Source of the DNA: a virus
Lineage: Duplodnaviria > Caudoviricetes
IMG/VR virus record: IMGVR_UViG_3300036832_001686
Location: 1-55,268 of that record
Length of the DNA: 55,268 nt
Strand: one strand, 5' to 3'
Shown here in pieces: positions 3,053 to 55,268 of this stretch; position 1 is the first letter of the stretch; every line of letters begins with the position of its first letter. Below the pieces are notes generated by a model. It was not told the DNA's origin. It was given only the letters and a program-made list of their open reading frames with translations, and did not search any database. The translations under genes and the position numbers were made by a program.

Positions 3053-3126
3053 CTGGGGTCCCTTTAACCCCATGGACAAAGCGGCTCTGAGGAGCCCGAA
3101 AAATTTGTGTTTGTGAAAAATTTTTA
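3053..3126 (+). other. Putative cos packaging site; core GCTCTGAGGAGC at 3084-3095
   Basis: Dyad GGCTC-TGAG-GAGCC followed by A/T tracts, upstream of a gpA-type terminase. Matches the reverse complement of the window's right end at 29 of 41 positions, ungapped. Confidence 0.7.
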
Positions 3127-14096: not shown

Positions 14097-14102
14097 AAGC
14101 TT

Positions 14103-37574: not shown

Positions 37575-37787
37575 ATGACTGACAACGAGATTATTGCAAC
37601 TTTAAAGCCCTGTCCGTTCTGCGGCTGTTCAGAGATTCAATGGGTAACGCATTATTTCAATAAGTGTTGCGCTGATCCGAACGTGCCAACGGTAGAGATC
37701 ATTTCTTGTACTAATCCAGCTTGCGGTGCGCAGATACGCCGGATCGAGATTGAGCAGGCGGTGAAGGTCTGGAACTACAGGCAATGA
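37575..37787 (+). CDS. Lar-family restriction alleviation protein
   Basis: LKPCPFCG...C..PACGA...AVKVWNYR. Confidence 0.8.
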   Translation: MTDNEIIATLKPCPFCGCSEIQWVTHYFNKCCADPNVPTVEIISCTNPACGAQIRRIEIEQAVKVWNYRQ

Positions 37788-39100
37788 AACAGCATTCCAA
37801 AACCACGGCGGAATATTGGCTCAGTCGCGTCTACTTCCACAACCAGGGGGGCAAAGTCGAAGCCGACTATTCGGTTTTGATTCAACACGACAAGCGCCGG
37901 GAACGTTTCCCGTTGCATACGTCCAACAAGCGCCAAGCTTCCGAGCTCGCCCGCGAGATTTACCGAACCCTGCAAAATGGCGGTTGGGATCTGACCATCG
38001 CCGTTTACAAGAAAGGCCAGACTATCGATGGTGACCTCACGGTCGGTCAATACCTCGATGCCGTGGCCCGAGTCTGGACTAAGCACGAAGCAACTCTGCA
38101 CAATTACACGCGCAGTTTGCGCATGATCGTGACGGAGCTTTTTAATCTGGATCCGGACAACCAACGCTTTAACTACAAGCATGCCGGCTCGGCCGCTTGG
38201 CGGGCGCGGACCGATGCCGTTTACTTGAGCGACATCACCACCGACCGGGTCAACACTTGGGCGCTCGGCTATGCCGGCCGAAACATCAAAACTCGCGGGC
38301 CTGGCGCAGCACCCGAGACCAATCACGTCGCGCTTAACCGGCGTCGCATTTCGGCGAATTCCTATCTGCGGACCGCTAAAAGCCTTTTCTCGCCCAAATT
38401 ATTGAAGCGTACCGGATTCAAGCTCGCGTCGATCCCGTTTAAGGATGTCGAGTTTTTCGGCGGCACCGATAGCCGCTACTTTAGCGATTTCGATATCCGG
38501 AAAGTTTTGACTGCGGCCCAAGCCGAGCTCGCGCCTTTTGACGCTGACGCTTATTCGGTGATTCTTTTGTCTGCTGTTGCCGGGTTACGCCGGGGCGAAA
38601 TTGATTTGCTGGAATGGCCCAGCATTGATTTCAAGCATGGCGCCATCCAATTACGGGTGACCGAATACTACCGACCGAAAACGCCGGATTCGTTGCGCCA
38701 GGTTCCTTTCAAAGCGCCTTGGGTTCTGGATTGGTTTAAGGCCAGGCGGACCGCCCAAGGCGAGCAGGCGCGCTTTGTGGTGGCGCCAGCCGCGCAGTAT
38801 CAGCCCGACCAGAAAACCGATTACTACCGCTGCGCTGATCTCTTGAGCAAAGTTTCGGCTTGGTTACGTGCCCGAGGCGTCAAAGCAATCCGGCCGTTGC
38901 ATACGTTACGCAAAGAAGCGGGCGCCGATATCGTGCGCCGGATGGGCTTGGTTGCGGGTGCGGCGTTCTTGCGTCACAAGACAACCGCAGTGACCGCAGC
39001 TCACTACACCGATTGGACAATTACAGAAACGCCAAGTTTCGTCGATGTCGGTCAAGAAGAAAAAAATATTATTAAATTTGCAGAAACCGACTTGACATGA
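37784..39100 (+). CDS. int: Tyrosine integrase
   Basis: GLRRGEI, PKT, HTLRK and LRH...TAAHY catalytic residues. Confidence 0.93.
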   Translation: MKQHSKTTAEYWLSRVYFHNQGGKVEADYSVLIQHDKRRERFPLHTSNKRQASELAREIYRTLQNGGWDLTIAVYKKGQTIDGDLTVGQYLDAVARVWTKHEATLHNYTRSLRMIVTELFNLDPDNQRFNYKHAGSAAWRARTDAVYLSDITTDRVNTWALGYAGRNIKTRGPGAAPETNHVALNRRRISANSYLRTAKSLFSPKLLKRTGFKLASIPFKDVEFFGGTDSRYFSDFDIRKVLTAAQAELAPFDADAYSVILLSAVAGLRRGEIDLLEWPSIDFKHGAIQLRVTEYYRPKTPDSLRQVPFKAPWVLDWFKARRTAQGEQARFVVAPAAQYQPDQKTDYYRCADLLSKVSAWLRARGVKAIRPLHTLRKEAGADIVRRMGLVAGAAFLRHKTTAVTAAHYTDWTITETPSFVDVGQEEKNIIKFAETDLT

Positions 39101-40459: not shown

Positions 40460-41429
40460 AGAAGAAACTAACAAAGCAATTACTACCCGCCAATCGATCA
40501 GCTTTGGCGAGCGCGGACTACGGTTTCTAGATATGGATCAGATGTTCCGTTTTTCCAAAGCGGTGGCTGGGAGCCAGTTTTGTCCAAAAGGCTGGAGTGA
40601 GATCGACTGTTTTGTGGCGTTACAGAAAGGCGCCGAAACCGGGATGACGCCGATGCAATCGCTTGAATCGATCTATGTCGTTAATAACCGGGCAACGCTT
40701 TTCGGTGATGCGCCCAAAGCTTTAGTCGAGGCATCCGGCTTGATGACCGACTATAAACAGCAATACGAAGGGCAGGAAGGAACAGACGATTACCGTTGCG
40801 TGGTGACCTCGACCCGTAAAGGCCGGGAACCGATGACTGAAACCTATTCTGTGAGGGACGCGAAAACTGCCGAGCTTTGGAATAAACCGGGAGCGTGGAA
40901 ACTACACCCGCGCCGAATGCTGCTTTTCCGCGCCAGGGGATTTAATTTGCGCGACAATTTTGGCGATGTCCTCAAAGGTTTCCAGATCGGCGAGCTTGTC
41001 GACGAGGATGGGGTTGCCGGCTTCGAACACGCCAGAAATGCCAGTGCAAAGGTGGTTGAACCGCGCTTTGACTCCCAAGAAGAGCGCCCGGCAACTAAGG
41101 CACCGGAACAGAGCTCCGAGCTGCCGAAACGCCCGCGGGGGCGTCCACCCAAAAACCCGGAACCAACCGATTATGGGCCCAATGCAGTGCCAGAAATGAA
41201 GGCCACGCAACAGAGTTTTGCTACCGAGCCGACCGAATCCACTTTAGCCGCTGAGATAAAACGTCGCCTTGAAGTCGCCAATTTAGCGCCTGACAAATTT
41301 CTCGCTCTTATGCGGAGTTACGAATTTATCGGGCCGGAAGTGACCACTATCGAGCAATGTCGGCCGGATGATTTGAAACTGGCCCTTGGACACTGGACGG
41401 ACGTCCTAACTGAATTAGAGAAAGTATGA
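40452..41429 (+). CDS. RecT-like single-strand annealing protein
   Basis: GMTPMQSLESIYVVNNRATLFGD and AKTAELWNKPGAWKLHPRRMLLFRARGFNLRD. Confidence 0.85.
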   Translation: MSEEETNKAITTRQSISFGERGLRFLDMDQMFRFSKAVAGSQFCPKGWSEIDCFVALQKGAETGMTPMQSLESIYVVNNRATLFGDAPKALVEASGLMTDYKQQYEGQEGTDDYRCVVTSTRKGREPMTETYSVRDAKTAELWNKPGAWKLHPRRMLLFRARGFNLRDNFGDVLKGFQIGELVDEDGVAGFEHARNASAKVVEPRFDSQEERPATKAPEQSSELPKRPRGRPPKNPEPTDYGPNAVPEMKATQQSFATEPTESTLAAEIKRRLEVANLAPDKFLALMRSYEFIGPEVTTIEQCRPDDLKLALGHWTDVLTELEKV

Positions 41430-42577
41430 GCGACCCACGCAAAGGTTTGCCTAGCGCCTCGGCCATGTATCGACTGTCGGAATGTCCCGGCAGTTTGACC
41501 CTGACTAATTTATTGCGCGAGCGCGGCCAACTTTACCAGTTACGCGACCGCGCGGTAAGCTCAGGAAATAGAATCCACGCTTGGCTAGCTCAAGAAGCTT
41601 TAGCGAATGATCCGCTGGTAGCGCTAGACCAGGACGAAGAGCAGATAGCTAAAATGTGCGCCAGTTTGCGCGACGAACGCCGCGAGCAATGGCTCGCTCC
41701 TACCCTGGAACAAGAAGTCTTTGTAGAACAACGATTCTGGTATCGGTCCGGTTTTTTGCCGCGTTTTAGCGGTCAACCTGATTACCTGGTGATCGACCAA
41801 GACGCTAAGTGCGCTTGGGTAGCAGACTACAAAACCGGCCGGCGCGAAGCCCAAGAGGCGGCAGATAATTTGCAACTGCGCGCCGAGGTGGTGCTCCTAA
41901 AACATAACTTCCCGGAACTCGAGCAAATCAGCGCTAGTATTATCGAGCCATTAGTTAGCTGGGATAATGTCAGCGTGGTCTATGAAGGCGCCGATTTAGT
42001 GAGTGCTGAAGCTAACATTCTGGAAATTGTGGCTCGGACCGAGTTTGAACGCGAACACCGCGTGGCCGGCCCCTTTTGCGTTTATTGCCCGGCTAAAGCC
42101 CATTGTCGTGAAGCGTTCGCTTATGCCCAGAGTGTGCCAAGCGTGGCGCCGGAAAAAGCGATTGCCGAATTGCCCCGCGGCGTGAACGGCGTCCGCTTAT
42201 GGGAACGTGCCAAAGTCGCCAAAAAGCTCATCGAAACAATCGAGGAAGCGTACACCCAGATTTTGGAGACTGAACCGGAAGCCTTGCCTGGTTACATCTT
42301 GCCCAAAGAAGGACGCACCCGGCGCTTTGTGCCGTACCCGGCTAAGTTCAAAGCGGCCTTAGCCGATTATTTAACCGGCGAGGAAATCGACGGGTGCGCC
42401 AACTACCATTTGTCCAGAATCGAAGAACTCTTTGGCCTGAAAACAAAACTTAGCGGTAAAGAGTTACAGTCAACTTTTAAGGCCGTCGTTAACGATACGG
42501 TTTCGACGACTCGGGATGCGCCTTTTATCCGGGCGAAAACCAAACGGGAGCGAGAGGAGGCGCCGCAACTAAAATGA
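41426..42577 (+). CDS. PD-(D/E)XK Cas4-like exonuclease (DUF2800-like)
   Basis: SASAMYRLSECPGS, GQPD, DYKTG, NLQL and CVYCPAKAHC. Confidence 0.85.
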   Translation: MSDPRKGLPSASAMYRLSECPGSLTLTNLLRERGQLYQLRDRAVSSGNRIHAWLAQEALANDPLVALDQDEEQIAKMCASLRDERREQWLAPTLEQEVFVEQRFWYRSGFLPRFSGQPDYLVIDQDAKCAWVADYKTGRREAQEAADNLQLRAEVVLLKHNFPELEQISASIIEPLVSWDNVSVVYEGADLVSAEANILEIVARTEFEREHRVAGPFCVYCPAKAHCREAFAYAQSVPSVAPEKAIAELPRGVNGVRLWERAKVAKKLIETIEEAYTQILETEPEALPGYILPKEGRTRRFVPYPAKFKAALADYLTGEEIDGCANYHLSRIEELFGLKTKLSGKELQSTFKAVVNDTVSTTRDAPFIRAKTKREREEAPQLK

Positions 42578-43392
42578 GCGACCTACATATAATTTCTTTA
42601 GGGGCTGGGGTGCAGAGTTCCACTATGGCGCTTATGGCTGCCGCTGGAGAAATTACTCCCATGCCGCAGGCTGCGATATTCGCCGATACTGGCGCTGAGC
42701 CTGGGAGCGTCTACCGGTGGTTAGACTGGCTTGAAAAACAACTTCCGTTTCCAGTTCACCGAGTCATGCAAGGCGAAGGGCTCGCAAAAGATGCGCTACG
42801 AATTAGGCAGAGGAAAGATGGCAAAGGGTCTTGGGTTCCGAGCGGTATTCCTCACTTCTCAGAGAATAGCGATGGAACATTCGGTCAGGGCCCGCGGCAA
42901 TGTACGCAGGATTTTAAACTCGCTCCCTTAATGCGTGAGGCTAAAAAGTTGATGAAGGAAAATGGTGCTAATCACCTCATCCAATGGATCGGGATTTCAC
43001 TGGATGAGGCGCACCGGATGAAACCGAGCCGGGTTAATTACGCCACGTCGATTTGGCCGTTAATAAAGCTGCGCATGAAGCGCTGGGATTGCTTGCGTTG
43101 GATGCAGAAGCATGGCTTTCCTAAGCCGCCTAGGAGTGCCTGCGTCTTCTGTCCCTATCATTCCGACACAGAATGGAAAAGGCTTAAGATTGAAGAACCT
43201 GAGGAATTCGCGAAAGCAGTAGATTTTGAGCGTGCTTACCAAGACGCAAAGCGCCTCACGTTCGGAAAAGGTTTTACTCCCTTCCTTCACGCGTCTCGAA
43301 CGCCCCTAGATCAAGTCGACTTTTCAACCGACGAAGACCACGGCCAGCAAATCATGTTCGGCAACGAATGCGAAGGGATATGCGGCGTATGA
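42574..43392 (+). CDS. PAPS-reductase-like (PP-loop, Cys-rich) protein
   Basis: ISLGAGVQSS, FADTGAE, IGISLDE, SACVFCPYH and ECEGICG. Confidence 0.82.
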   Translation: MSDLHIISLGAGVQSSTMALMAAAGEITPMPQAAIFADTGAEPGSVYRWLDWLEKQLPFPVHRVMQGEGLAKDALRIRQRKDGKGSWVPSGIPHFSENSDGTFGQGPRQCTQDFKLAPLMREAKKLMKENGANHLIQWIGISLDEAHRMKPSRVNYATSIWPLIKLRMKRWDCLRWMQKHGFPKPPRSACVFCPYHSDTEWKRLKIEEPEEFAKAVDFERAYQDAKRLTFGKGFTPFLHASRTPLDQVDFSTDEDHGQQIMFGNECEGICGV

Positions 43393-43456
43393 TCTGGTTT
43401 TTACTGATCTGGATCGGGCTCACGCTCTTAATGCTGCGATTCTTGCAATTCACCAA

Positions 43457-44018
43457 ATGAAAATTCATCCGGTAGCAGACCTCTTTCCTATGATGTCGGA
43501 TGACGAACTCACCGAGCTCGCCACCGACATTAAAGCTAATGGGCAAATCCATCCCATTATTATCGATAACGATATTATTATTGATGGTCGGAACCGGCTC
43601 GAGGCTTGCAATCGGGCTGGAATACAACCGACTTTTGCCGAGCTGAACGGCCAAGATCCGGTCGCGTTTATTCTCTCAGCCAATATTGCAAGGCGCCATC
43701 TTTCCAAGGGCCAACAAGCCATGGCGGTAGCGAAAGCGTTATTACTAAGTAATAAAACGCAAACTCAGGCGGCAAAACAGACGCAAGTAAGTCAAACCCG
43801 GATCGCACAAGCTTCGATCGTTCTGCAATACGCACCCGATCTAGCCGATGGCGTACTATCGGGCGCGCTCGCGCTCAACGTCGCCTATGAACAGGCGCAA
43901 AAACGTAAAGATCAAAGCAGCTCAACCGATGAAGCGTTAAAACGGTTGCACAAAGAATCGCCGGAATTAGCCGATCTGGTTGTGGAGGAACGGATGAGCT
44001 TAGGCGAAGCCGAGGCGG
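43457..44018 (+). CDS. ParB-N domain protein, N-terminal part (continues at 128..375)
   Basis: IHPVADLFPMM...DIKANGQIHPII...DGRNRL...NIARRHLSKGQ. Confidence 0.88.
43892..44018. repeat. 127-bp exact repeat, copy 2
   Basis: Identical to 1-127. Confidence 0.97.
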
Positions 44019-44255
44019 GATGCCCGCCCCGCCGAGTCCTTTTTCGGTCAGCACTAAATGCCGATCGAGAAAGAGTTCTCGCAGTGCCATACGGAAGAAT
44101 GAGAAATTAGTTTCATCCTTGCCGTAAGGCCCGGCTAATTGCTGTAGATCTTTCATTTTATAGAAAGCGCCATGACTAATCGGACCGAGCTCTTTCTCAA
44201 TCCGGTCCATGATTTGCAGCATGAACTCGTTTCGAGTTAGCAGTTCCTCGCTCAT
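44019..44255 (-). CDS. Hypothetical protein coupled to the RAMP-like gene, truncated at the junction
   Basis: ATGA overlap with 44252..44866; runs off at 44019. Confidence 0.65.
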
Positions 44256-44866
44256 GGTAAGACCTCCACTTCAAAACGCCCGTAGCGCGGCCGCCAATCG
44301 CATAGTCCGATATAAAACCCAGCATCGATAGCCGATTTAAGTAGAGCGTCCCCGTTCACCACGTTCGCATCGAATTTCAGTAAAAACTCGAGCACCCACG
44401 GAACGGGGAAAATTGGTCGGGTCCGCACAATTCGGCTTTGATTAACCCGAACTAACTTCGTGAAAACGAAGTTGCTGTTACCATCTGCCCACATTTTTTC
44501 CTTGGTCCGCGGGCCTTGGTAATCGAGCCGGATCACGCCCGCGTCACCGGTTTTACCATCACCCTCCACAAAAACGGCCAATCCGACCTCTTTTCCATAT
44601 TTGGACTTTTTAGCCCCGGCGGTGATGGTAGCTAATATATTATCGGTTGGGACCACTGGCCCAAATTTTTCATCCCAATATAAACTTCCTTGCCACTCCG
44701 CCTTAGCTAAATCGACCAAATCTTCATCGGTCTTTTTTCTTTTGGAGCTCAGCGCCTTGATGCGCCTAGCTGCTGGGTTCAGTGGATTAGCTAAAGTACC
44801 TTGGTGATGGATTAGATCACTGACTCCGGTAAACCGGAGCCGCATCGTTTCTAAACTAGATTTCAT
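44252..44866 (-). CDS. Stand-alone RAMP/Cas7-like protein (Vipr-like)
   Basis: LRFTGVSDLIHH, PVVPTDNILATI, RIVRTRPIF..W and C-terminal Gly loop AGFYIGLCDWRPRYGRFEV; adjacent to GGY/NN arrays. Confidence 0.75.
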   Translation of the reverse strand: MKSSLETMRLRFTGVSDLIHHQGTLANPLNPAARRIKALSSKRKKTDEDLVDLAKAEWQGSLYWDEKFGPVVPTDNILATITAGAKKSKYGKEVGLAVFVEGDGKTGDAGVIRLDYQGPRTKEKMWADGNSNFVFTKLVRVNQSRIVRTRPIFPVPWVLEFLLKFDANVVNGDALLKSAIDAGFYIGLCDWRPRYGRFEVEVLP

Positions 44867-44905
44867 TTTCTATCTTTCTTTCTTTCTTTCTGTTCGAGCC
44901 TCACG

Positions 44906-45045
44906 AGCTCGCTACTGCCGACTAACAATTCTGTTAGCCGGCAGTGTGCGAACTAAATCGCCCATGCCTTGCCTTGCCGCGCCGTGCCTGGCCCTGCCTC
45001 GCCTTGCCTCGCCGCGCCTTGCCCTACCAAGCCGCGCCAAAATCC
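44906..45045 (-). ncRNA. Guide-like RNA unit A: (NN-GGY)x15 + AT-GGG + hairpin
   Basis: Perfect 5-nt register 44961-45040; 3' hairpin TCGCACACTGCCG-GCTAACAG-AA-TTGTTAGT-CGGCAGTAGCGA. Confidence 0.8.
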
Positions 45046-45062
45046 TAGAGTCTGCTTTCAGC

Positions 45063-45209
45063 AGCTCGCTACTACCGTTAGCAGTTGCCAACGGCAGTAT
45101 GCGAACCGTTATGGTTTCGCCCATGCCTTGCCCCGCCAGGCCTCGCCTCGCCCTGCCGTGCCAAGCCTCGCCGCGCCCTGCCAAACCCGGCCTCGCCAGG
45201 CCAAAATCC
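45063..45209 (-). ncRNA. Guide-like RNA unit B: (NN-GGY)x16 + AT-GGG + hairpin
   Basis: Perfect 5-nt register 45120-45204; 3' hairpin TCGCATACTGCCG-TTGGCA-AC-TGCTAA-CGGTAGTAGCGA. Confidence 0.8.
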
Positions 45210-45263
45210 AAATTTTTAACTGACCTTTTTTCGTAAGCTTTTTTTAGGTCCGTGCGTTATTTA

Positions 45264-45473
45264 TTAGGGATCAAGCTCATTGGCTGTTAGCTCTGCCAAG
45301 CGGTCGATCAACTCTAAGGCCCCGGCCAAAGTCTCGAGATCCAAGCTCGAATCGAAGAACACCCGGTCGCGGCACCCGGCAACAAACGCGCGGCCAGTGA
45401 GTCCCCTGGCTTTGGCGCGCTCGATTCCCGCCTCGAGCAGCGCGACTAATTCGTTTTGTTTGGGAGTCATCAT
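45264..45473 (-). CDS. Hypothetical protein
   Basis: Co-oriented small ORF in the minus-strand run. Confidence 0.55.
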   Translation of the reverse strand: MMTPKQNELVALLEAGIERAKARGLTGRAFVAGCRDRVFFDSSLDLETLAGALELIDRLAELTANELDP

Positions 45474-45493
45474 GTTAGTTACTGCTTAGTTTT

Positions 45494-45730
45494 TTAATTG
45501 CTCTCGAACCGATCAGCTTCGAGCCCGCGCTGACCAACCTGGAGGAACTCCACCAGCTCGGAGACATCGCCTTTGGTGCTCACGAAATAGTCGAAAATCA
45601 TGTAACCAATCTTTTTTTCGACCGTGTCCCACTCTTCGCTTCCCAGCCAATCTAGGGCCAGAGCTTCGAAGGCCTGCCGTTGTTTCAACCGGGCTTCTTC
45701 TATAGGGTCCATATTCTTAGGAGTCTGCAT
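45494..45730 (-). CDS. Hypothetical protein
   Basis: Co-oriented small ORF. Confidence 0.6.
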   Translation of the reverse strand: MQTPKNMDPIEEARLKQRQAFEALALDWLGSEEWDTVEKKIGYMIFDYFVSTKGDVSELVEFLQVGQRGLEADRFESN

Positions 45731-45857
45731 TGATAGCTAGTCGGCTATTTTGGTTAGTTGCGGGCGGCCCGGCCAAATGCAGAAATGCGCGTCCGTCCGC
45801 TGCGCAGGTTTTTCCGACAAGCATGGTCACTCTGCGCTTGACCGTGTCCGCCTACTC

Positions 45858-46184
45858 TCACTTCCCGCCGGCGGCTGGCGGGTAAGCTTTTACTTTCGCC
45901 AGTTTATCTAAAATTCGATCCAGCGTAGCTTCCAGCTCTTCCAGGTCGGTCCCATCGAGAACGATAGACACCAGTTTATCGACGATGTTAGTTGTCTGGT
46001 TCTCTAATGCTTCCAGATCACTGGGGGTGTTTTCCTCAATGTATTTTAGGTTCCCGGTGATATTATTTGTCTGTTCGTTTAATGCTTCCAGATCACCAGG
46101 AGTATTTTCTTCGATGTACCGCAGGCCAACGGCGATATTACCTGTCTGTTTGTTTAGTTCGTCGAGATGCTGCCGCTCATTCAT
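45858..46184 (-). CDS. Coiled-coil protein with about three 25-aa repeats
   Basis: (D)LEALNEQTNNITGNLKYIEENTPS-type units. Confidence 0.7.
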   Translation of the reverse strand: MNERQHLDELNKQTGNIAVGLRYIEENTPGDLEALNEQTNNITGNLKYIEENTPSDLEALENQTTNIVDKLVSIVLDGTDLEELEATLDRILDKLAKVKAYPPAAGGK

Positions 46185-46554
46185 TTGTACTCTCCGCCGT
46201 TATGCGAAGTTCCCGCCGAGGGGCATCATCGACGATCCCAACAAATTCGCAGTGAGTGTCACGCAGACAATCCTGCCCGTTGTCGCCACCCTCAAAAATA
46301 ATTGCCCAAACCTCTGAAAATCCGTGTTCGAGCTGACATCGCCGGATTTGGTCTGGACTCCACGAATGCGGGACCGTGATGTCGATATCCAACTTGCACC
46401 GGAAACGCGCGACCTTGGTTACGACGACGCAATCGCGAGCGTGCGGAGTACCCACTAACTGCTCGCAATAAAAACACGCATCCGACGGTCCGGCTGGCCG
46501 GATACCGTCGTCTTGTGGATCCACTAAAGGCCAATTCGAATCGCCTGTGCTCAT
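46177..46554 (-). CDS. Cys/His-containing hypothetical protein
   Basis: IRPAG..DACFYC...HARDCV; overlaps both neighbours. Confidence 0.65.
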   Translation of the reverse strand: MSTGDSNWPLVDPQDDGIRPAGPSDACFYCEQLVGTPHARDCVVVTKVARFRCKLDIDITVPHSWSPDQIRRCQLEHGFSEVWAIIFEGGDNGQDCLRDTHCEFVGIVDDAPRRELRITAESTNE

Positions 46555-46796
46555 TGCGCTTTGGCCAGTTGAGCCCTCTGAAACCGAGCACCCCCAGGCA
46601 GGAACGAATGGATAAAATCGTCGAGCGACTTTTTGTTAATCAACCGAACGCCTTTGCGTTTCCCGGGCTTAACAATATGGACGCTCAAGACCTCTTCGGT
46701 CATGCATTGCCGATAGATCTCCGAAATGGATAGCCCGGTCCTGGCGCTCGCGTCTTGGAGCTTCTCCCAGTCGGGTTCGACGAATTTTCTGCTCAT
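46551..46796 (-). CDS. AlpA/excisionase-like HTH protein
   Basis: LQDASARTGLSISEIY...GVRLINKKSLDDFI. Confidence 0.78.
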   Translation of the reverse strand: MSRKFVEPDWEKLQDASARTGLSISEIYRQCMTEEVLSVHIVKPGKRKGVRLINKKSLDDFIHSFLPGGARFQRAQLAKAQ

Positions 46797-46914
46797 GAAC
46801 AATATTGAGCACAAATTCGCAATCCGAAATAGTCGGCCTCAGAAAGATTTTTTAAGAGCACCTATTTCGCCTGAAATTGGTGGCCTTGAAGAAAAAGCTA
46901 GAGGCCCACTATTT

Positions 46915-47475
46915 TTAACGCTTGGTCGGTCTGCCAGCTCGAGCCGGCTTAAGCGCGCCTAAGCCCGCTTTTCGAAGAATTCGGGTCCAAGCGTGTTTTT
47001 TCGGAACAGCTTTTCCGGCCGCTTTTAAAATCTCTTCGGCTCTGGCTCTCACTTCGCGTTTGGTCGGCCAGTCATTCTTAGATTCACCGATAAAGAGAGC
47101 GTCAAAGACTTGAAGCGCCGCCCGGATCCCGTGCATTTCCGGTTCGGGCCAACTATCGTAATCCATGACTTTGAGAAGATTTTCAAAGTAAGCGCGGTCA
47201 CCGTCGAAAGCGGCTTTTAGAAGCCGGGCCTTGAATTTTTCGATATCTGCGGCGCCGCTTTCCAAAACCTGGCGATAGAATGGGGAATCGGCAGAGAACT
47301 TTTCGAGTAACCCAGGATATCCTTTTTCATAGTCGCGCCAATCTTCGAGCTGTTCCCAAATATCGGCAGGACTGTCCAGCGGCTGCTCAAAGTTAAGATT
47401 GTCGATATTGTACTTTTGGTACGCATCGAGATAGCCAGGCGGATATTCTATCTTCTTGTACTTTTCGTCTTCCAT
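46915..47475 (-). CDS. Hypothetical protein, possible C-terminal HTH regulator
   Basis: 186-aa ORF right after the integrase; WPTKREVR...WTRILRKAGL. Confidence 0.65.
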   Translation of the reverse strand: MEDEKYKKIEYPPGYLDAYQKYNIDNLNFEQPLDSPADIWEQLEDWRDYEKGYPGLLEKFSADSPFYRQVLESGAADIEKFKARLLKAAFDGDRAYFENLLKVMDYDSWPEPEMHGIRAALQVFDALFIGESKNDWPTKREVRARAEEILKAAGKAVPKKHAWTRILRKAGLGALKPARAGRPTKR

Positions 47476-47489
47476 GGAACCGCGAACCC

Positions 47490-48653
47490 CTATTGGGCTT
47501 TGGGCAACCGCGGGATGAGTTGAGTGGCGGCTTTGATTGCGTCCAGATCCTCGTGGATATAGCGGTCGACTACGCCCCCGGCGGCGTGATTGGTGACCCG
47601 GCGGGTGATCTCCCGAAGGGCCGCCCCGTTGAATACATTGCTGGCCGCGGTGTGCCGGAAACTGTGAAACGAGAGCGCCCTGACCGAACGGCCTTTGCCT
47701 GCGTTGCCTTGACGCAAGAACCGCTTTTCAATACCCGCCTTGTCGAGTAACGCAACGAACGTATTCGAAAGCCCGTGCTCGCCATTCAACGCCTTGTCGG
47801 CCAACGTGGGGAATACCGGTGCGTCAGCGGCCTCCTCGGGTGTGGGCCGAACCGCTAGCCAATCAAGAAAGTCAGAGTGCAACCCAAGCACCGCCTGGGC
47901 CTTGGTCTTGCGCTCACGAAAAACGACGATCCCGTTCGCAACATCGAGGTTCGACCATTTAAGGCTCTTGCAATCACCGAGTCGGGCCCCGGTCCCGTAC
48001 GCGAACAGGATCACCCCTTGCCAATCAGAATCAGCGACCGCGAGCAGAGCGGCGATTTGGTCGCCCGTAAAGGTCTCTTTACTGAGCGACTCGCTCCTTT
48101 CGGGCGCGGTCGCCATGACCGGGTTGAAGCGGATCTTGCCGACCTTGCGGGCCTTCTCGAATGGGGCTGACAAATATTTGCGGATCAGCTTATTGATCGT
48201 CGCCGGGGATCGGCCCTCTTTGCGTAGGAGCCGGATAAATCCTTCAATATCGGCTGTGGTAATGGAATCCAGACGCCGGGTTTGGGCGCCACGTCCGCCC
48301 AGGTAGGCTAAAAATTCCTCAACAGCCTGGGCATAGGCTTTATAGGTTGAAACTTCAATCTGGCCCTCTTTAGAGCCGAGCCATTCACCCAACCAGCTTC
48401 CGACACTAACGAAGTCGATTCCTGAGGAGCCGATCCGTTCGAGGGTTTCATTTAAGATTTCTAAGACCCGGGATTGGGAAAGCCGCCCCTCTGCTGCCGC
48501 ATCTTCGGCACTCTGCCAGGCCTCGGCGATAACCTTCGCCTTGGGCTTATCCCGGGTCTTAGTCGAACGCCAGACCCGGCGTCCGTCGCCGAGAGTGAGA
48601 ACTGCGTACCAGGTGCCTTTGGGGGATCGAGTGTTGCGGTGAACCGAAGCCAT
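47490..48653 (-). CDS. int: Tyrosine integrase
   Basis: TGARLGD, KTK, SFHSFRH and H...YIH. Confidence 0.93.
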   Translation of the reverse strand: MASVHRNTRSPKGTWYAVLTLGDGRRVWRSTKTRDKPKAKVIAEAWQSAEDAAAEGRLSQSRVLEILNETLERIGSSGIDFVSVGSWLGEWLGSKEGQIEVSTYKAYAQAVEEFLAYLGGRGAQTRRLDSITTADIEGFIRLLRKEGRSPATINKLIRKYLSAPFEKARKVGKIRFNPVMATAPERSESLSKETFTGDQIAALLAVADSDWQGVILFAYGTGARLGDCKSLKWSNLDVANGIVVFRERKTKAQAVLGLHSDFLDWLAVRPTPEEAADAPVFPTLADKALNGEHGLSNTFVALLDKAGIEKRFLRQGNAGKGRSVRALSFHSFRHTAASNVFNGAALREITRRVTNHAAGGVVDRYIHEDLDAIKAATQLIPRLPKAQ

Positions 48654-48655
48654 AG

Positions 48656-48858
48656 ACTCACTAACACGATTCACTACCGAGCAACTTAATTCCAGAACAT
48701 TCTAGAACATTCTTCTCTCTCGGAATCAGGCACTTACAGAGGGGTGAATAAGGTACCGAGGGTTCGAATCCCTCCCCATCCGTAGGTGCTTAGAATGAGG
48801 CACTTACAACAAATCAGAGCCAGAAAATCGCCAATTCGCTAACAGATTCACTAACAGG
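48656..48858. other. Satellite attP region
   Basis: TCACTAAC-like arm repeats paired on each side, GAATSAGGCACTTACA direct repeats (48723, 48793), and tandem AGAACATTCT. Confidence 0.75.
48753..48782 (+). tRNA. 3' end of a tRNA (Ser-like), att core (not a full tRNA)
   Basis: GTACCGAGGGTTCGAATCCCTCCCCATCCG: T-arm plus 3' acceptor strand. Confidence 0.75.
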
Positions 48859-48969
48859 CGTTTTGAAATCGGCTTGAACTAACTTGAAATCCCTCCTGCC
48901 CTGCCGAAGTTTACCAGGCCGGCCAAGCTCGGCTAGTCTGTCGCTGTGCCAACGCTTTGCCAATGAAAG

Positions 48970-49179
48970 ATGCCTCGCAAGATCCGAGACCTGATCAAGG
49001 ATTTAAAGTCGGCTGGTTGGTCACAGGTTGCCGGGGGCAAGGGCTCCCACCGGAAATTCAAGCACGACAAATTCCCTGGGGCGGTGCTGATTCCGGGTCA
49101 CGATAACGACGACTCTAAACCCTACCTAGAAAAGCAAGTTAAGAACGCGGTTAAAGGCCGAATGGTACGCAAGCCATGA
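48970..49179 (+). CDS. hicA: HicA-family toxin
   Basis: LIKDLKSAGW...GKGSHRKFKH...VLIPGH. Confidence 0.92.
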   Translation: MPRKIRDLIKDLKSAGWSQVAGGKGSHRKFKHDKFPGAVLIPGHDNDDSKPYLEKQVKNAVKGRMVRKP

Positions 49180-49400
49180 GCGAAACCAAAAAAATCACCA
49201 TGTGGGTTCAATGGAGTGATGAAGACGGTGCCTTTCTTGGCTACTGCCCGCAGTTCTTCCCTTACGGCGCGGTCTGTGACGGTCACACCCAAGCCAAGGC
49301 CGTAACCAAACTTGCTCGACTAGTCCGGGAAGAATTGGAAGAACGCGGACAACTCCCTAAACCGCTTACGAAAGGGCGAAAGGCCCGAGTCGCACACTAA
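49176..49400 (+). CDS. hicB: Short HicB-family antitoxin
   Basis: VQWSDEDGAFLGYCP...GHTQAKAV...LPKP; ATGA coupling to hicA. Confidence 0.85.
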   Translation: MSETKKITMWVQWSDEDGAFLGYCPQFFPYGAVCDGHTQAKAVTKLARLVREELEERGQLPKPLTKGRKARVAH

Positions 49401-49430
49401 GCTTCTGCCCTGCCGAAGTTCACCAGGTCG

Positions 49431-49437
49431 GTAAGTA
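49431..49437 (+). promoter_or_regulatory. Helper-type GTAAGTA late motif
   Basis: CGGTAAGTA, 9 nt before ATG 49447 in front of the satellite TMP gene. Confidence 0.7.
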
Positions 49438-49498
49438 AGCTTTGAAATGACCGAGAATTTAAACAAGGGGGCCCGCTGGAACGAGGCGGGATAGAGTC

Positions 49499-51946
49499 AT
49501 CACTCGCGATCTACAAGAGTTAAAGATCCTAATTTCGGGGCATACGGACGCCTCGGTCGGTGCCGCCAGCGCTAAAGTGGTCGGCGAAGTCAAAAAGCTG
49601 GCAGACAGTCTAGACCGGTTGGCGGTAATCGAAAAACAGATTGGCCAGGTCAACAACGCGGTCGCGGAGGGATTCAAGAAAATGGGGAGTGGCGCTCGCC
49701 AAGCCGAAGCTGAACTGACCGGCTTTGAGGCTAGCCTGAAACGAGTTAAAGAAATTGCAGCCGGCGTCTTTAGCGGCGAAGCGCTCTGGGAAGGATTTAA
49801 GGGCGGCGTCGAGATGGTCAAGGAAGGTATCGGGGATGTCGTGGAACTGCTGCAGAACGCATCGAAAGCAGCCTCTGACTTTGAGATGACGCAGAAGGGA
49901 ATTGGTAATCTGCTGCGCGATCAGCCCTATGCCAACATGCTGATCAAGAACTTGCGGGAAACCGCTGTCGGCAGTCCTTTTGCGCCCGAGACGCTGTACG
50001 GCGCCGCTCGAGCGCTGACAGGGCGCGGCATGGACAAGAGTCTGCTCGAGTCGCGCACGAATGAGCTGGGCGACATCGTGAGCGGTATTGGCGGTGGGCA
50101 AGAGATGATGGAACGGCTGACGCTCGCATACGGCGAGGCGTTCAGCGAGCACCTCGTCAACAAGCGAATTCTCAACCAGTTCGCCCAGGCTGGCGTCAAC
50201 ATCACGTCCGAGATCATGAAGGCTTATGGCATGGACCCCACGGATGCCAACGTGCAGAAATTCCAAAAGATGGTGCATGATAAACAGATCACCTTCACCG
50301 ATGTCGATAAAGCACTCTACACTTTGACGCACGGCATGGGGATTTATGCGGACGCGATGCAGAAACACGCGGAGACAGCGCAAGGTATCTGGACGGGATT
50401 CATCGCGAGGCTGAACTTCATCGAAGTCGATCTCGGCGGCATCGTTAACGACATCTCGATGACGTTGCTGAACCTGCTCGAAAAGAGCGGCTTTCTGAAA
50501 GCATTCGACACCTGGCTGCAAGGGATCCGCACCATAGCGGACAGCATGACCGAGTATTTCAAGCTGTTTAACGGCGAAAAGATTATCCATTTTTTCCAGA
50601 CCGTCGGAGACGGCATCCAGCAGTTCATGGTGAAGCTGGGTTTAATCTCCAAAAGTACAGAATCAAAATATCTCACTAGCGATATCTACGCCTTTGCCGG
50701 TCAGCGTCCCGAGACCTTTGGTAAACAACGGCCGCAACTGGGCCGGGTAACGCCAGCCTGGAAACTGGGCGGAGAATTCGAATCCGAGACAATCCTGCCG
50801 GCCGCACCGACACCGACGGTGGCGGATAAATTGACCAAATGGTTAGACGATCTCTCTAACACTCTGGCCAGCATTCATACGGAGCAGGTCGAAGATTTCC
50901 TGCAAGGTTTGGTGACGGTATCGACCGCAATCGGCGGAGTCAGTATGGATTTCTTTGGTGAAATTGCTGATTTCTTCAAGGACATGTACACCTTCGGGCA
51001 ATGGTGCGGCGGACCCGGCCACGATATGGTGGTTGGGTTTTTCAACGCCATCAAAGATTTCTGGAACAACATTGTTCAATGGATCTCGGATCACATCCCG
51101 CCCTTTCTGAAATTGACGGCGCCCTCGGATCAAGAGAAACGAATGAACGAAGCGGCGGATAAAGCCCGCAGCACCGTCGATATCGACCAGGAGACAGTCA
51201 ACCAGCGGCAAAGCGACCTGGACAATAAGATGTTGTTGGGCACCCAAGACCAAATTGATCACGCTAAATCCGCTTTAACCCTGGCCCAGGACAAGTTGAA
51301 AGTTGATACCGCGCTCGCCGCGGCGGCAGAGTCACTCACCAAAGCGTTCGAAGGTCATAGCCCCGGGCTGATCCCGGCAACCGAGACTGCGACCGCGGCG
51401 CTAGATGCATTTGCCCAGGCCATGCTCTCTATGCCCCTTGGAGCAGCCACGGGGGGCTTTGGTGGTGCGGTCGCTGGCGGTGGTGCTGGCGTCACTGAAT
51501 ACGGGCCGAGCATCGATCCGCCCGGGTCTGCTGACTACGATTATAACTCGTATCACCGTATCGGTGCGTGGCCTGGAAAGACAGGGCCCTTGAGTCCTGG
51601 TGATGTCGCGCTTGGCTACGGCGCGCAAGCTCATTACGGGGTGCAGCCCGGGCAATGGTTCACTGACGATCAAGGGCGCCACGTTCGCTTCGCCGATCGC
51701 AGCGGGAGCAAGAATCCGATGAACGAGGACATTTTTCGCCTCGCTGCTGGCGGCATTGTGCGACGTCCGACGACTGCGCTAATTGGCGAGTCTGGGCCCG
51801 AAGCGGTGGTGCCCTTACGCGGTGCCGGCGGTATCGGTCACACTTTCAATGTGACGGTTAACACTGTCGCCGGTGACGGCTACGCAATCGCAGAGATGGT
51901 GATGAATGCACTGCAGGAGCTCACGGAGCGAACCGGCTCCGTGTAA
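49499..51946 (+). CDS. Tape measure protein paralog of 16763..19129 (start uncertain)
   Basis: Colinear end to end. Homology begins at ATC 49499 (ITRDLQELK versus MTRDLQELK), upstream of the GTG called at 49577. Confidence 0.9.
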   Translation: MTRDLQELKILISGHTDASVGAASAKVVGEVKKLADSLDRLAVIEKQIGQVNNAVAEGFKKMGSGARQAEAELTGFEASLKRVKEIAAGVFSGEALWEGFKGGVEMVKEGIGDVVELLQNASKAASDFEMTQKGIGNLLRDQPYANMLIKNLRETAVGSPFAPETLYGAARALTGRGMDKSLLESRTNELGDIVSGIGGGQEMMERLTLAYGEAFSEHLVNKRILNQFAQAGVNITSEIMKAYGMDPTDANVQKFQKMVHDKQITFTDVDKALYTLTHGMGIYADAMQKHAETAQGIWTGFIARLNFIEVDLGGIVNDISMTLLNLLEKSGFLKAFDTWLQGIRTIADSMTEYFKLFNGEKIIHFFQTVGDGIQQFMVKLGLISKSTESKYLTSDIYAFAGQRPETFGKQRPQLGRVTPAWKLGGEFESETILPAAPTPTVADKLTKWLDDLSNTLASIHTEQVEDFLQGLVTVSTAIGGVSMDFFGEIADFFKDMYTFGQWCGGPGHDMVVGFFNAIKDFWNNIVQWISDHIPPFLKLTAPSDQEKRMNEAADKARSTVDIDQETVNQRQSDLDNKMLLGTQDQIDHAKSALTLAQDKLKVDTALAAAAESLTKAFEGHSPGLIPATETATAALDAFAQAMLSMPLGAATGGFGGAVAGGGAGVTEYGPSIDPPGSADYDYNSYHRIGAWPGKTGPLSPGDVALGYGAQAHYGVQPGQWFTDDQGRHVRFADRSGSKNPMNEDIFRLAAGGIVRRPTTALIGESGPEAVVPLRGAGGIGHTFNVTVNTVAGDGYAIAEMVMNALQELTERTGSV

Positions 51947-52162
51947 TTGATACAACTAACCGACGTCGGTTAGTTTCCATCACGGTCGACGTATCCCGAA
52001 AGTCTGCTCGGGTGCTTGGCGGCTCAGAGGGCTAAAGCGAAAGTTAGTAATGATAGGCGCTTTAACTTGAGCAGGCTTTTCCTCCTGCGCCCAGGAGGCC
52101 AGCAGTTCCTCTGCACGTTTTCGCAGCAAACGGTTAGAAAGTTTCCGAGACATAACTTGTTA

Positions 52163-53320
52163 TTAATTGCTCACGCCCGAATTTGTCGAGATCGCCCAGG
52201 CTTGCGTGTGCCGGAACTTAACATCTACCCAGCTGTCCAAAATAAAGCGAACGCGCCCGCTGGTACTTTGGCTATACGGATCCACAAAAACTTCAGTGCC
52301 GCCCCAGTGGGCAAAAATCGCATTCGAGAAATCTCCAAAGAGCACTTGGTTAGTGGCTCCGATCTGGTTAGTTCCGATAAAATCCCAGCCAGCGATACCT
52401 GCGTCATTCGCGTAAAAGTTTGGATAATAGGTGGTCGCGCCTCGTGCATCCTGACGTGCGTATCCCTTCCACGCGGCTAATGTGCTCGGCGAACAAACGA
52501 ACCGGGTGGTTGCAGGGTCTAGATCCACATCGCACGCGCCGGCGACATTCGCCTCGAATTGCAAGACTGCGGCCCACGTCGGCGGCCCGCCTGTTGCGAA
52601 CGTCACCGAGGGGGCTAGCTCGCCATAAACGCTCGTCCCGGGCGCGGAACTCGGGATGGTAAACAATCCCACAGGCTGGTTGTTAGCCGGCCCAGTGCCC
52701 CATAACCCTGCGTAATCTTCAGCCACTGCGATGCTCCTCAACAAATCGTTGGCGACGAACTGTTGGGCGCTCAAAGCGCTTTGAGTTAACAATTGTCGAC
52801 TGACCACCGCAACCGAGTTCAATCTCTTGGGGGACAAAACAATTTGTGCGAAAGTTCGGTCCGAACTGGTCGCGGGGCTGATCTCGGGAAGCCACGCCGA
52901 AGTGGAGGCCGAGGTCTGACCTGCAATCGCCAAATCACCCTGAAGATTGTCGAGAAAAACGGCCCCGGCTCGACCAAAGACCATCTTTTTTCTGAGCAGG
53001 TCGATCAGTCGCGGCGACACATCCGTCTGGATAAGCGAACCACCGGCGCCAGGCGTACCTGCCACGGCGTCGCGCATCACCGCTCGCCCGATCGGTGTGT
53101 CTCTTAACGAAAAGCAGAGACACGAATCGGGGAGCCAAATTGCGTTCGGATTTTTTTTCTGGCGCCCTTCAGATAGAGCAACGTCAACCGCTTTTTCCAG
53201 GCCGCTCAATCGCTGATCGCCCGCCTCGCGCAGAGCTTTGCACAAATCGTAACGCTGCAGTTCCTTTGCGGGGATCGACGGGAACGGAGCCAGAGTCAGG
53301 GGCTTGGTTTGATAGTCCAT
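52163..53320 (-). CDS. Major capsid protein paralog lacking the protease and most of the scaffold region
   Basis: RYDLCKA, RLSGLE, RDAVAGTPG, LLRKKMVFGRAGA, NQIGATNQVLFG and the C-terminal STNSG are shared with the helper capsid. Confidence 0.9.
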   Translation of the reverse strand: MDYQTKPLTLAPFPSIPAKELQRYDLCKALREAGDQRLSGLEKAVDVALSEGRQKKNPNAIWLPDSCLCFSLRDTPIGRAVMRDAVAGTPGAGGSLIQTDVSPRLIDLLRKKMVFGRAGAVFLDNLQGDLAIAGQTSASTSAWLPEISPATSSDRTFAQIVLSPKRLNSVAVVSRQLLTQSALSAQQFVANDLLRSIAVAEDYAGLWGTGPANNQPVGLFTIPSSAPGTSVYGELAPSVTFATGGPPTWAAVLQFEANVAGACDVDLDPATTRFVCSPSTLAAWKGYARQDARGATTYYPNFYANDAGIAGWDFIGTNQIGATNQVLFGDFSNAIFAHWGGTEVFVDPYSQSTSGRVRFILDSWVDVKFRHTQAWAISTNSGVSN

Positions 53321-53802
53321 TTTTGGTGACTTTGTTAGGTCGATTTGACCGCCTAAACCGTACACCCTGGACCACGGGCTTGACAGCACAAAAGATGTCG
53401 CTTGTCCAGAGCTGCGCCGTCTCTGATACTAACGCCATGTTTTCCTGGCGCAGAGCTTTTGCGGCCCTCTTGCCGCCGCATAAAAAAACTGGCGAGCAGG
53501 TGACGCGACCGCCGTTGATGTTGTCACCGCTCTTCTCCTCGCCGTACAGGAGCGAACCAGTTGGTTGGTTTACCCATGTTGCAGGCCTCGATGTCACCGG
53601 CAGCAACACCAACTCCGGACTGTTCAACCGTCGCCCTCGTTCGTGGGAGACTCAGCAACAAGTCCCGAATTGGGTAGGAGCGGGACAGCACTCACCGCCA
53701 GCGCCGCTTTTGCTGGACGCGAATCAAGCCCCAGGATTCTATCGGCCTCGCATTTCGGTTTTCACAACGCCGGCTAAGCTCGGCCGTCTCTGGAAATGGT
53801 AA

Positions 53803-54036
53803 TTGCAAGACTCAACCCGACGAACACTGCTGTGCAGCGCTGCTGAGGGCGATGTCTATTTCGCTCGGGCCGAGCCGTGGCGAGGCTGCTGGTTTGAACT
53901 GCGCTCGAACACGCCTCCAGGAGTATGCTTGGCCACCTATTGTTTGCCGGGAACACAGCCGGCGTGGTTAGGAGACCGTCCGCCTGCGCCCGAGACGTGG
54001 GTGCAGGTTGCCCGTGAGCGGCGACTGATCCCTTGA
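53803..54036 (+). CDS. Small hypothetical protein, paralog 1
   Basis: WxELR-x7-C-x3-YxLP...APxxWVQ, shared with the next ORF. Confidence 0.55.
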   Translation: MQDSTRRTLLCSAAEGDVYFARAEPWRGCWFELRSNTPPGVCLATYCLPGTQPAWLGDRPPAPETWVQVARERRLIP

Positions 54037-54076
54037 CAGCGCGACTCCTCGGGGATTACACAATTGCTTCTGCGGT

Positions 54077-54319
54077 ATGGATGCTCCCCCTCATCTCTGC
54101 ACCCTCATCTCGCGAACGCATTTTCTGACCGTCAAGGACCGCCACGGCTGGCAATGGTTTGCCTACTTTTGCACATCTGAAATCACACAAGAACGCTGGA
54201 TTGAACTCAAGGGCAGCGAGGACCGACAAGGCTGCACCAAGCGCTATTGGTTGCCCGATGACCAGCACGAGCTCGCGCCCCCGGCGTGGGTGCAAAAGAT
54301 TCCGCGCCAACTGCTCTAG
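54077..54319 (+). CDS. Small hypothetical protein, paralog 2
   Basis: WxELK-x7-C-x3-YxLP...APxxWVQ. Confidence 0.6.
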   Translation: MDAPPHLCTLISRTHFLTVKDRHGWQWFAYFCTSEITQERWIELKGSEDRQGCTKRYWLPDDQHELAPPAWVQKIPRQLL

Positions 54320-54609
54320 ACGATGATCGGCAGCGTCTGCGGCAGTAATTGATAGAGCGTGCTCGCTAAAGAAAAAAGGCTAGTTAATCGTCCACTAGCA
54401 CACACTAGTTTCCGACCAACTAGCCCAAAAACCCAAATATCTAGAACCAGATACTTCTTCTTGAGCCTACTACAACAACGCACCGCAGACAAAGGAATAC
54501 CGGCAGCGAGAGAACGCCCAGATAACGTCAACAACGGTGCTCACTCCTGGCCGTCATTTTCTGTGTGCCGTGCAGCGGGTACCGTTTGCCAGAAATTTAA
54601 AAGTGCTAC

Positions 54610-54807
54610 ATGAAATTTGATCAATCGAATACGGTCTATATCGGTGATGCCGTTTACGCGACTTTTGATGGTTGCGGCATCGAATTACGACTTAACAGCC
54701 ACAAGAGCGAATGCCTCATCTATCTTGAGCCTGAGGTGATGGCAACCCTGGTCGAATTCTGGCGGAACGCGAGCGAGGTCGAAAATTCGAAAGTTCTATT
54801 CAAATAG
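54610..54807 (+). CDS. Small phage-type hypothetical protein
   Basis: YIGDAVYATFDG...IYLEPEV. Confidence 0.65.
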   Translation: MKFDQSNTVYIGDAVYATFDGCGIELRLNSHKSECLIYLEPEVMATLVEFWRNASEVENSKVLFK

Positions 54808-54872
54808 CAGTTGTTCAGCAAAAGTTGCTGGAAGTTGAAAACCTCGCGCCAAAACGAAGTTTTGCACTGCCT

Positions 54873-55130
54873 TCACTTTTCACGCAGACTTTTGAGCAAA
54901 TCGTCGGTCGATTCGAACACCGGCAAATTTCCACTCTCGGCTTCTTCGAGCGCCAGGTGAAGCCGCTCTTCATTTGCATTTGATCCCAAAAGATAAGCAG
55001 TTTCGGCATCGCTATTTGTTTTGTGTGAAACATTCTTAGCCGGCAGCTCGAATTTTTCTCTTAGCTTCTTAAAAAATAGCGGCGCAGCTTTCGGCCGTCC
55101 GTTTTTGCGCTGACTTTTTGGGCGCTTCAT
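54873..55130 (-). CDS. Orphan YefM C-terminus-like antitoxin mimic
   Basis: ETAYLLGSNANEERLHLALEEAESG resembles YefM ETAYLLRSPANARRL. Confidence 0.6.
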   Translation of the reverse strand: MKRPKSQRKNGRPKAAPLFFKKLREKFELPAKNVSHKTNSDAETAYLLGSNANEERLHLALEEAESGNLPVFESTDDLLKSLREK

Positions 55131-55227
55131 TTCTTACCGCTTAGATAATTCGCACAAAATATCGCGGTCTTCGTGCATGATCTCCGAGGGTCCCTATTTT
55201 GGCCGCCGGCAAGTTTTGCACTCACTC

Positions 55228-55268
55228 AAAAAATCTCACATTCGCAAAAAATTCGTGGTCCTCAGACC
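55228..55268 (-). other. cos-like terminus; core GGTCTGAGGACC
   Basis: The last 12 nt form the dyad GGTC-TGAG-GACC; 29 of 41 positions identical to 3084-3124. Confidence 0.7.

Follow-up and report, generated by a model that had tools for sequence, protein, structure and literature searches.

The described systems with which the locus studied here can be compared are the cos site of phage lambda and several groups of phage satellites. In lambda, gpA nicks cosN, leaving 12-nt 5′ ends, and cosB is located between cosN and Nu1 (PMC6739421). The lambda record itself starts with a G+C-rich 12-mer that is followed by T/A tracts, and Nu1 begins at position 191. Among the satellites, the SaPIbov5 family comprises cos-type SaPIs that carry Ccm, a homolog of the capsid protein, according to PMC5052747, and the Ccm of cos-type SaPIs is reported to make small capsids (PMC5052747; PMC8569155). 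As described in the main text of PMC6739421, the cos PICIs of E. coli, represented by EcCICFT073, have cosN and cosQ sequences resembling those of the helper and a different cosB, and the Rpp protein retargets the terminase. P4 is an integrative cos satellite that is packaged by the P2 terminase into capsids built of helper proteins (PMC10690885). Finally, the EPIP satellites of Mycolicibacterium encode both a capsid protein (MCP) and a tape measure, and the preprint reporting them describes tape measures as otherwise absent from satellites (PMC12822802). Judged by analogy, the element whose end is described below would most resemble the cos-type satellites.

The window, i.e., the whole stretch of DNA that was analysed, is identical with the complete IMG/VR record IMGVR_UViG_3300036832_001686, which is 55,268 nt long and classed as linear. 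Its completeness is given as 100%. The record is an assembly chimera, composed of a complete phage genome and one arm of a second element. Since two replicons are combined in this public record, it would be wrong to regard it as a single 55-kb genome. The first 127 nt of the window (1–127, plus strand) are repeated exactly at 43892–44018. In a k=127 assembly graph, a circular path is usually recognised by an exact overlap of 127 nt, and bases 1–44018 are therefore a closed genome of 43,891 bp, for which the repeat is both the closing k-mer overlap and the branch point into the second element.

One public run, a soil metagenome, contains this DNA in its Logan contigs (k=31) and may be the source sample. 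These contigs constitute a second assembly made with a different assembler, from data possibly identical to the record's own sample. They were mapped to positions 41000–55268 with about 82% of the run's contigs covered; 15 contigs were placed, of which eight were listed. Positions 43567–44018 form a separate Logan contig of 452 nt with a depth of 36.1, against 14–14.6 in the neighbouring main phage and 11–12.1 in the arm. The contig corresponds to a piece of a ParB-like gene (plus strand), which is present with 100% identity in the main phage, in the second element and probably in a third replicon. The loose end before 43567 shows other DNA entering the 452-nt segment from a different sequence, and at the loose end behind 44018 the main genome itself continues, from window position 128 onward. 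From the depth step and the loose ends at this piece it follows that the assembler circled the main genome and then left along the second element. Further loose ends of the Logan contigs were located at 45391, 45887 and 46411. The 30-nt loose end before 43567 was also used as a query for the remainder of the second element, and it matched none of the metagenome contigs searched. At a depth of 36, the 452-nt piece is carried by three or more replicons of the sample, which points to recent recombination among them. The ParB-like ORF is shortened in the second element, where it ends at 44110.

Bases 1–44018 are the circular 43,891-bp genome of a temperate myophage of soil Verrucomicrobia. Its packaging region contains, on the plus strand, a gene of the endonuclease VII family (3132–3749; Pfam PF02945, E 6.9e-15, and PHROG endonuclease VII families), a probable small terminase subunit gene, TerS (3583–3996; phrog_57 terminase small subunit, E 3.5e-6, with a positive codon-usage score), and a large subunit gene, TerL, of the lambda gpA family (3980–6037; Pfam GpA_ATPase 2.7e-67 and GpA_nuclease 4.7e-56). 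The encoded TerL is 27% identical to lambda gpA over 594 aa (E 8e-46). Downstream lie a gene for a protease-capsid fusion of 720 aa with an N-terminal prohead-protease-like part (9177–11339), the tape measure gene (16763–19129) and an integrase gene (37784–39100) beside a tRNA-Lys gene. Portal, sheath, RecT and exonuclease genes were also annotated, and the ParB-like gene spans the closure. The tRNA-Lys(CTT) gene is complete (37315–37386, minus strand) and located just upstream of the integrase gene; this region is probably the attP region of the main phage. Directly after the capsid gene there is an ORF of 209 aa (11379–12008) containing a 30-nt periodic repeat (11487–11870, seven copies of a 42-nt family) that encodes a His-Pro-Ile-Tyr-type motif, and its product may be a decoration or fibre-like protein.

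The site beginning at position 3084 is situated in a non-coding stretch, 36 nt upstream of the endonuclease VII gene, which is followed by TerS and the gpA-family TerL. Its sequence (3084–3124, plus strand) is GCTCTGAGGAGC + CCGAAAAATTTGTGTTTGTGAAAAATTTT. The 12-nt core (3084–3095; GCTCTGAGGAGC; 5+4+5 dyad) is proposed as the cosN of the main phage, and the flank (3096–3124), in which GAAAAATT occurs twice, 17 nt apart, at +15 and +32, as the start of its cosB. As in lambda, the site is placed upstream of TerS and of a TerL of the gpA family, and it consists of a G+C-rich 12-mer with partial two-fold symmetry and A/T tracts on the side of the terminase genes. Unlike in lambda, the endonuclease VII gene lies between the site and TerS, the sequence has no likeness to the lambda cos, and the A/T tracts are limited to two phased ones, with R elements and an IHF site not identified. 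From position and anatomy, both of which recall lambda, the site at 3084 is likely the cos site of the main phage. It was assembled through, and joined cos forms of the main phage therefore exist in the sample.

The arm of the second, satellite-like element comprises 11,250 nt (44019–55268). It encodes a tyrosine integrase (47490–48674, minus strand; Pfam Phage_integrase 1.3e-14; phrog_1 1.4e-42), beside which an intergenic attP core (48750–48782, plus strand) has the sequence with which a host tRNA-Ser(GGA) gene terminates on its 3′ side. Further along the arm are a HicA toxin gene with a probable HicB gene (48970–49400, plus strand; Pfam HicA_toxin 3e-14, HicB by position only), a tape-measure homolog (49577–51946, plus strand) and an HK97-type capsid-protein homolog of 408 aa (52163–53389, minus strand). 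The tape-measure homolog is 79% identical to the tape measure of the main phage. The capsid homolog lacks the protease part and shares 48% identity over 390 aa with residues 336–720 of the main phage fusion. Both are lone genes on opposite strands, facing each other, and do not make up a functional structural module. Nearest to the end lies an ORF of 85 aa (54873–55130, minus strand) with neither a family match nor any likeness to the main TerS; a 65-aa ORF without a family match also lies near the end, and a phrog_4652 protein and small ORFs are found elsewhere in the arm. Searches of the 11.25-kb arm with Pfam and PHROG, and its comparison with the main phage, gave no matches to a terminase, portal, protease or other tail gene, and complete head, tail or lysis modules were absent from this stretch. 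The second element looks like a satellite by its sequence: it has an integrase and an attP, its capsid and tape-measure homologs stand alone, and no terminase was found within the 11.25 kb. The arm is only a part of the element, and a terminase located elsewhere in it would fit the data. The element being incomplete, its membership in any known satellite family cannot be claimed.

Several other features of the arm were recorded. The DNA homology of the tape-measure copy begins exactly at the start codon of the main phage gene, where the copy has ATC and the main phage ATG. Within 49499–49579, the next in-frame common start of the copy is the GTG at 49577, and the copy is either N-terminally shortened, read from a rare start, or unexpressed. 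Between 53400 and 54600, about 1.2 kb are devoid of a convincing ORF, with a weak codon-usage signal in all six frames and no Rfam match; the stretch may represent a decayed gene or have no coding function. Two arrays (44958–45038 and 45117–45210) with about 15 copies of the 5-nt unit NNGCC are located in a non-coding gap of the element, each preceded by a similar leader of about 50 nt, which makes a 159-nt direct repeat. These arrays could be iterons, an origin or a partition site.

The 33-mer attP core was found exactly in 41 genome loci, of which 37 belong to Verrucomicrobiota (mostly Chthoniobacterales), three to Acidaminococcus and one to another bacterium. The 5′ part of the tRNA-Ser forms the Logan loose end before 48750 and occurs with at most two mismatches in 28 of 124 loci, eight of them exact. 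Based on these matches of the attP core and of the tRNA-Ser loose end, the host is very probably a Chthoniobacterales bacterium (Verrucomicrobiota). The Logan contig is continuous through attP at a depth of 11–12, and the flank of the host tRNA is represented by a 67-nt side contig with a depth of only 5.4, so the second element is present in an excised form. Two MAGs have two loci each matching the attP core and might carry integrated elements.

The two elements of the record are each other's closest known kin. Their tape measures (TMP) are 79% and their capsid proteins 48% identical, while the best matches outside the record reach 31% and 36%, respectively. Together with the 100% identity of the 452-nt piece, this mutual kinship argues for common host cells. 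The best identity of TerL was 46%, among 182 metagenome proteins at E ≤ 1e-50; elsewhere the best values were 37% in IMG/VR, 33% among cultured phages and 35% in the 401 Chthoniobacterales genomes. A search of IMG/VR with the TerL alignment yielded 582 relatives from 583 candidate stretches (best 37%), and 80 loci were kept; TerL used as a single-protein query gave no IMG/VR match, and searches of the same database with the TMP and MCP alignments found no relatives. Across the 83 loci compared, the core motif was present in one, which is the window's own. The exact terminal 26-mer was absent from IMG/VR, and a degenerate 33-nt consensus of both sites had no match in IMG/VR, JGI metagenome contigs or GTDB genome contigs.

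No close prophage or integrated copy was detected among the 401 Chthoniobacterales genomes searched. TMP was found in ten of them (best 31%) and TerL in nine at E ≤ 1e-30 (best 35%). The MCP profile matched 14 genomes, mostly in fusion forms of 640–700 aa. Protease-capsid fusions of this size are thus also a feature of Chthoniobacterales genomes in the capsid profile search. TMP was present in none of the five genomes that carry the exact tRNA. On one Chthoniobacterales MAG contig (G086:C7), identical-scoring matches to the capsid protein (14056–15012 and 54126–55082) and to TerL (22991–24775 and 63061–64845) lie 40,070 nt apart, which suggests a tandem or concatemeric phage genome of about 40 kb.

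At the far end of the arm, the reverse complement of positions 55228–55268 reads GGTCTGAGGACC + ACGAATTTTTTGCGAATGTGAGATTTTTT. Its 12-nt core (55257–55268, minus strand; GGTCTGAGGACC) is proposed as the cosN, and as the 12-nt cohesive end, of the second element. The adjoining flank (55228–55256, minus strand) is cosB-like and contains two copies of ATTTTTTG, which lie at +17 and +35 from the end and are separated by 18 nt. When the terminal 41-mer was compared with 110,456 positions on both strands, its best match was position 3084 on the plus strand, with 29 of 41 nucleotides identical and no gap (10/12 in the core and 19/29 in the flank). The next best match reached 24/41 and occurred once. 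The base composition predicts 7.4e-5 matches at ≥29/41 and 0.43 at ≥24/41, and a chance resemblance of the two sites is excluded by the former value. Judged from their sequences, the terminal site and the site at 3084 are homologous, far beyond chance; the alignment beyond about 48 nt is noise. Each copy has two A/T tracts, 17–18 nt apart and at about equal offsets, and R-like repeats common to both were absent.

The geometry of the core is the same in both copies, a 4+4+4 interrupted dyad that reads GGTC tgag GACC at the terminus and GCTC tgag GAGC in the main phage. The cores differ only at positions 2 and 11, with C/G in the main phage and G/C at the terminus, a mirror pair in which the pairing is kept. 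The first-pass annotation had already quoted both sequences correctly; its ungapped match of 29/41 to 3084 onward was obtained again on recomputation, and the mirror differences that preserve the dyad were confirmed. It had further stated that the record ends on a 12-nt dyad. The stop does fall exactly at the outer edge of the core, but the core is an interrupted dyad and not a 12-nt palindrome, and neither core is among the 14 perfect 12-nt palindromes of the window. The term compensatory changes, used in the same annotation, is right in that the pairing is kept; however, one compensated pair between two sequences is weak evidence of covariation (p about 0.1 by a rough estimate). Dyads of the 4+4+4 form begin at 247 of 55,257 window positions (0.45%), and 4.4% of the window positions end on some dyad with arms of at least 4 nt and a spacer of 0–8 nt.

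The record and the Logan k=31 contig both stop at 55268, and there is no contig beyond this position among the approximately 82% of the run's contigs covered. Of the 15 contigs placed, one crosses an end of 41000–55268; this is the 10,441-nt contig, which does so near 41000. At 55268 no loose end was reported, while branches with 30-nt overlaps were detected at 43567, 44018 and 48750 in the same mapping. The possibility that 55268 is an arbitrary cut of the window, named earlier as the finding that would speak against a physical end, was examined, and the window proved to be the entire public record, continued by none of the contigs covered. Trimming of a provirus by IMG/VR was rejected as the cause of the end, as the record is classed as linear and the end of the Logan contig is identical. 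All evidence on the end is drawn from contigs, which cannot reveal pile-ups of read starts, and a further contig past 55268 could be missed.

The terminal Logan contig is 166 nt long (55103–55268) and has a depth of 20.7, against 11–12 in the rest of the arm; at about twofold depth it is therefore common, with 100% identity, to at least one other replicon or variant. No contig covering 51688–55102 was placed and the coverage bins 51948–54803 are empty; nothing was concluded from this gap, given that about 82% of the run's contigs were covered and that records are removed by a filter. Assuming one such site per element, we estimate the chance of a random stop at the exact outer edge of the core at about 1 in 10^4. 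A stop at the outer base of a 12-nt core, with the flank directed inward, is what a filled-in 12-nt 5′ overhang would give at the end where packaging is initiated. The left end of lambda is alike in that its record begins at the outer base of the 12-mer, the first ORF beginning at 139 here and at 191 in lambda.

Overall, position 55268 is fairly probably a true end cut by a terminase. The more specific reading, with the helper left open, is that a gpA-type terminase cuts here and leaves the cohesive end of a satellite-like element of the cos type; it has somewhat better than an even chance. The assembler joined the second element to the complete circular phage genome through the common 452-nt segment. 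In the proposed sequence of events at the end itself, a terminase of the gpA family would bind the cosB-like A/T-tract flank inside the element, by analogy with lambda, and would then nick both strands symmetrically about the 4+4+4 dyad, producing the 12-nt 5′ cohesive end GGTCTGAGGACC. The end-repair step of library preparation would fill the overhang, so that reads and contigs stop exactly at the twelfth base, and packaging would proceed inward from the terminal end. The homology of the two sites, their gene context, the chimeric structure, the attP with its host and the stop of both assemblies are observations; the cut itself, the length and the polarity of the overhang, the satellite lifestyle and the identity of the helper are inferred.

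Among the possible sources of the terminase, the co-assembled phage is related to the element more closely than any other known phage and is the obvious candidate helper. The cut could be made, with about the same likelihood, by an unsampled phage or variant whose cos is identical. The first-pass annotation had described a physical end cut by the helper terminase; the homology to a cos-like site, the stop of two assemblies and the satellite-like character of the element support the first part, while the identity of the cutter stands at roughly even odds. It is possible, though on the unlikely side, that 55268 is indeed a cos end but is cut by the terminase of some other, unsampled phage with an identical cos, or by a terminase of the element itself, and that the co-assembled phage is a relative with which genes are exchanged. 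Both half-sites have changed together, GCTC to GGTC on each strand, which is expected for a symmetric enzyme of different specificity; contrary to the earlier proposal that the same enzyme reads the symmetry of both sites, this pattern rather fits a changed specificity of the terminase. The flank differs at 10 of 29 positions, and a depth of 20.7 against 11–12 in the terminal 166 nt, with 36 against 14 + 12 in the ParB-like piece, indicates another replicon at about 9–10×. This other carrier of the identical end and ParB-like piece may be either the actual helper or a further strain of the element. However, the extra depth is explained equally well by a second strain of the same element, there is no third phage in the record, and the main phage is the nearest relative found anywhere. 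In addition, the E. coli PICIs use the helper terminase despite a different cosB (PMC6739421), so a diverged flank is compatible with the main phage as the cutter. A stricter version, in which the two replicons are a helper-satellite pair of soil Chthoniobacterales, the satellite has capsid and tape-measure paralogs of its own, the co-changed half-sites of cosN are still cut by the helper's own (or a retargeted) gpA-type terminase and the mismatched 12-nt ends keep the two genomes unjoined, is quite doubtful. The mismatches of the sticky ends would adjoin both ligation points, and an incompatibility between helper and satellite is plausible, as a speculation. If true, it would be a packaging-level isolation mechanism that is not described for satellites.

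The remaining explanations do without a terminase at 55268. Both assemblers may have halted at an unresolved branch, or at strain heterogeneity, that begins by coincidence at a conserved cos-like or regulatory region common to several related elements. A graph branch, no less than a dead end, would make the k=31 and the k=127 assembly stop at one and the same base. Several mosaic relatives are present in the sample, as seen from the loose ends at 43567, 45391, 45887 and 46411 and from the depth steps; 18% of the run's contigs were outside the part covered, a 3.4-kb part of the arm is without a contig, and a small dyad is found at the end of 4.4% of positions. Yet nothing was reported beyond 55268 by a mapping that detected branches with 30-nt overlaps elsewhere, and the stop coincides exactly with the outer edge of the core, the flank pointing into the element as it does at the left end of lambda. 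A branch at precisely this base would most simply represent different DNAs joined at cos, which still implies a working cos. A promoter or terminator as the reason for the common site was rejected, although weakly: the simple scans gave no site at either locus, and promoters other than sigma-70 types lie outside their scope. Rfam searched at gathering thresholds also gave no matches. We regard a halt at such a branch as unlikely.

That 55268 is the terminus of another kind of linear replicon, with terminal inverted repeats or a hairpin telomere and no cutting by a terminase, is very improbable. The doubled depth of the terminal 166 nt would fit an inverted terminal repeat, and a small dyad is indeed located at the very end, but no inverted copy exists in the window and the arm has no match to protein-primed polymerase or protelomerase families. 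At a hairpin telomere, a k=31 contig would be expected to pass the centre of symmetry by 15 nt, so that its last 30 nt form a palindrome. Here the two assemblies pass the centre of the dyad by 6 nt and the last 30 nt are not palindromic, and an N15-like hairpin telomere was rejected on these grounds. The linear-replicon explanation would also leave the homology to the site before the main terminase genes without a cause. The terminal copy has no adjoining terminase gene within 44019–55268, as is expected of the cos of a satellite.

With a cohesive end at 55268 as the preferred reading, the element can be set against the described satellites. It is like SaPIbov5 in being integrative, in having a phage-like cos and no terminase in the part seen, and in encoding a homolog of the HK97-fold capsid protein of its presumed helper. 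[quoted passage not shown] The cos sites are also further apart: the differences from the candidate helper amount to 2 of 12 nucleotides in the core and 10 of 29 in the flank, whereas the main text of PMC5052747 describes the sites of cos SaPIs and their helpers as near-identical. With EcCICFT073 the element would share a gpA/Nu1-type helper terminase, and a diverged flank has a precedent in that system (PMC6739421). In contrast to EcCICFT073, the core differs here as well, and the ORFs near the end gave no sign of an Rpp-like or TerS-like protein. The pair P4/P2 is comparable as a case of a cos-bearing integrative element, although the P2 terminase was not placed in the gpA family in this analysis, and P4 redirects the capsid size with Sid and not with a capsid homolog. 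The occurrence of capsid and tape-measure homologs together in one element recalls the EPIPs. These, however, have a serine integrase, TerS, adaptors and scaffold, according to the preprint PMC12822802, and belong to an unrelated host phylum.

If the end is real, it would fix the cos site and the cohesive end of a lineage of uncultured Verrucomicrobia phages without close relatives. In the full-text literature search, no described satellite in Verrucomicrobiota was found, the sole match being a text on gut prophages. A real end would thus also mean that a cos-type satellite-like element with capsid and tape-measure homologs exists in a phylum for which no described satellite was found.
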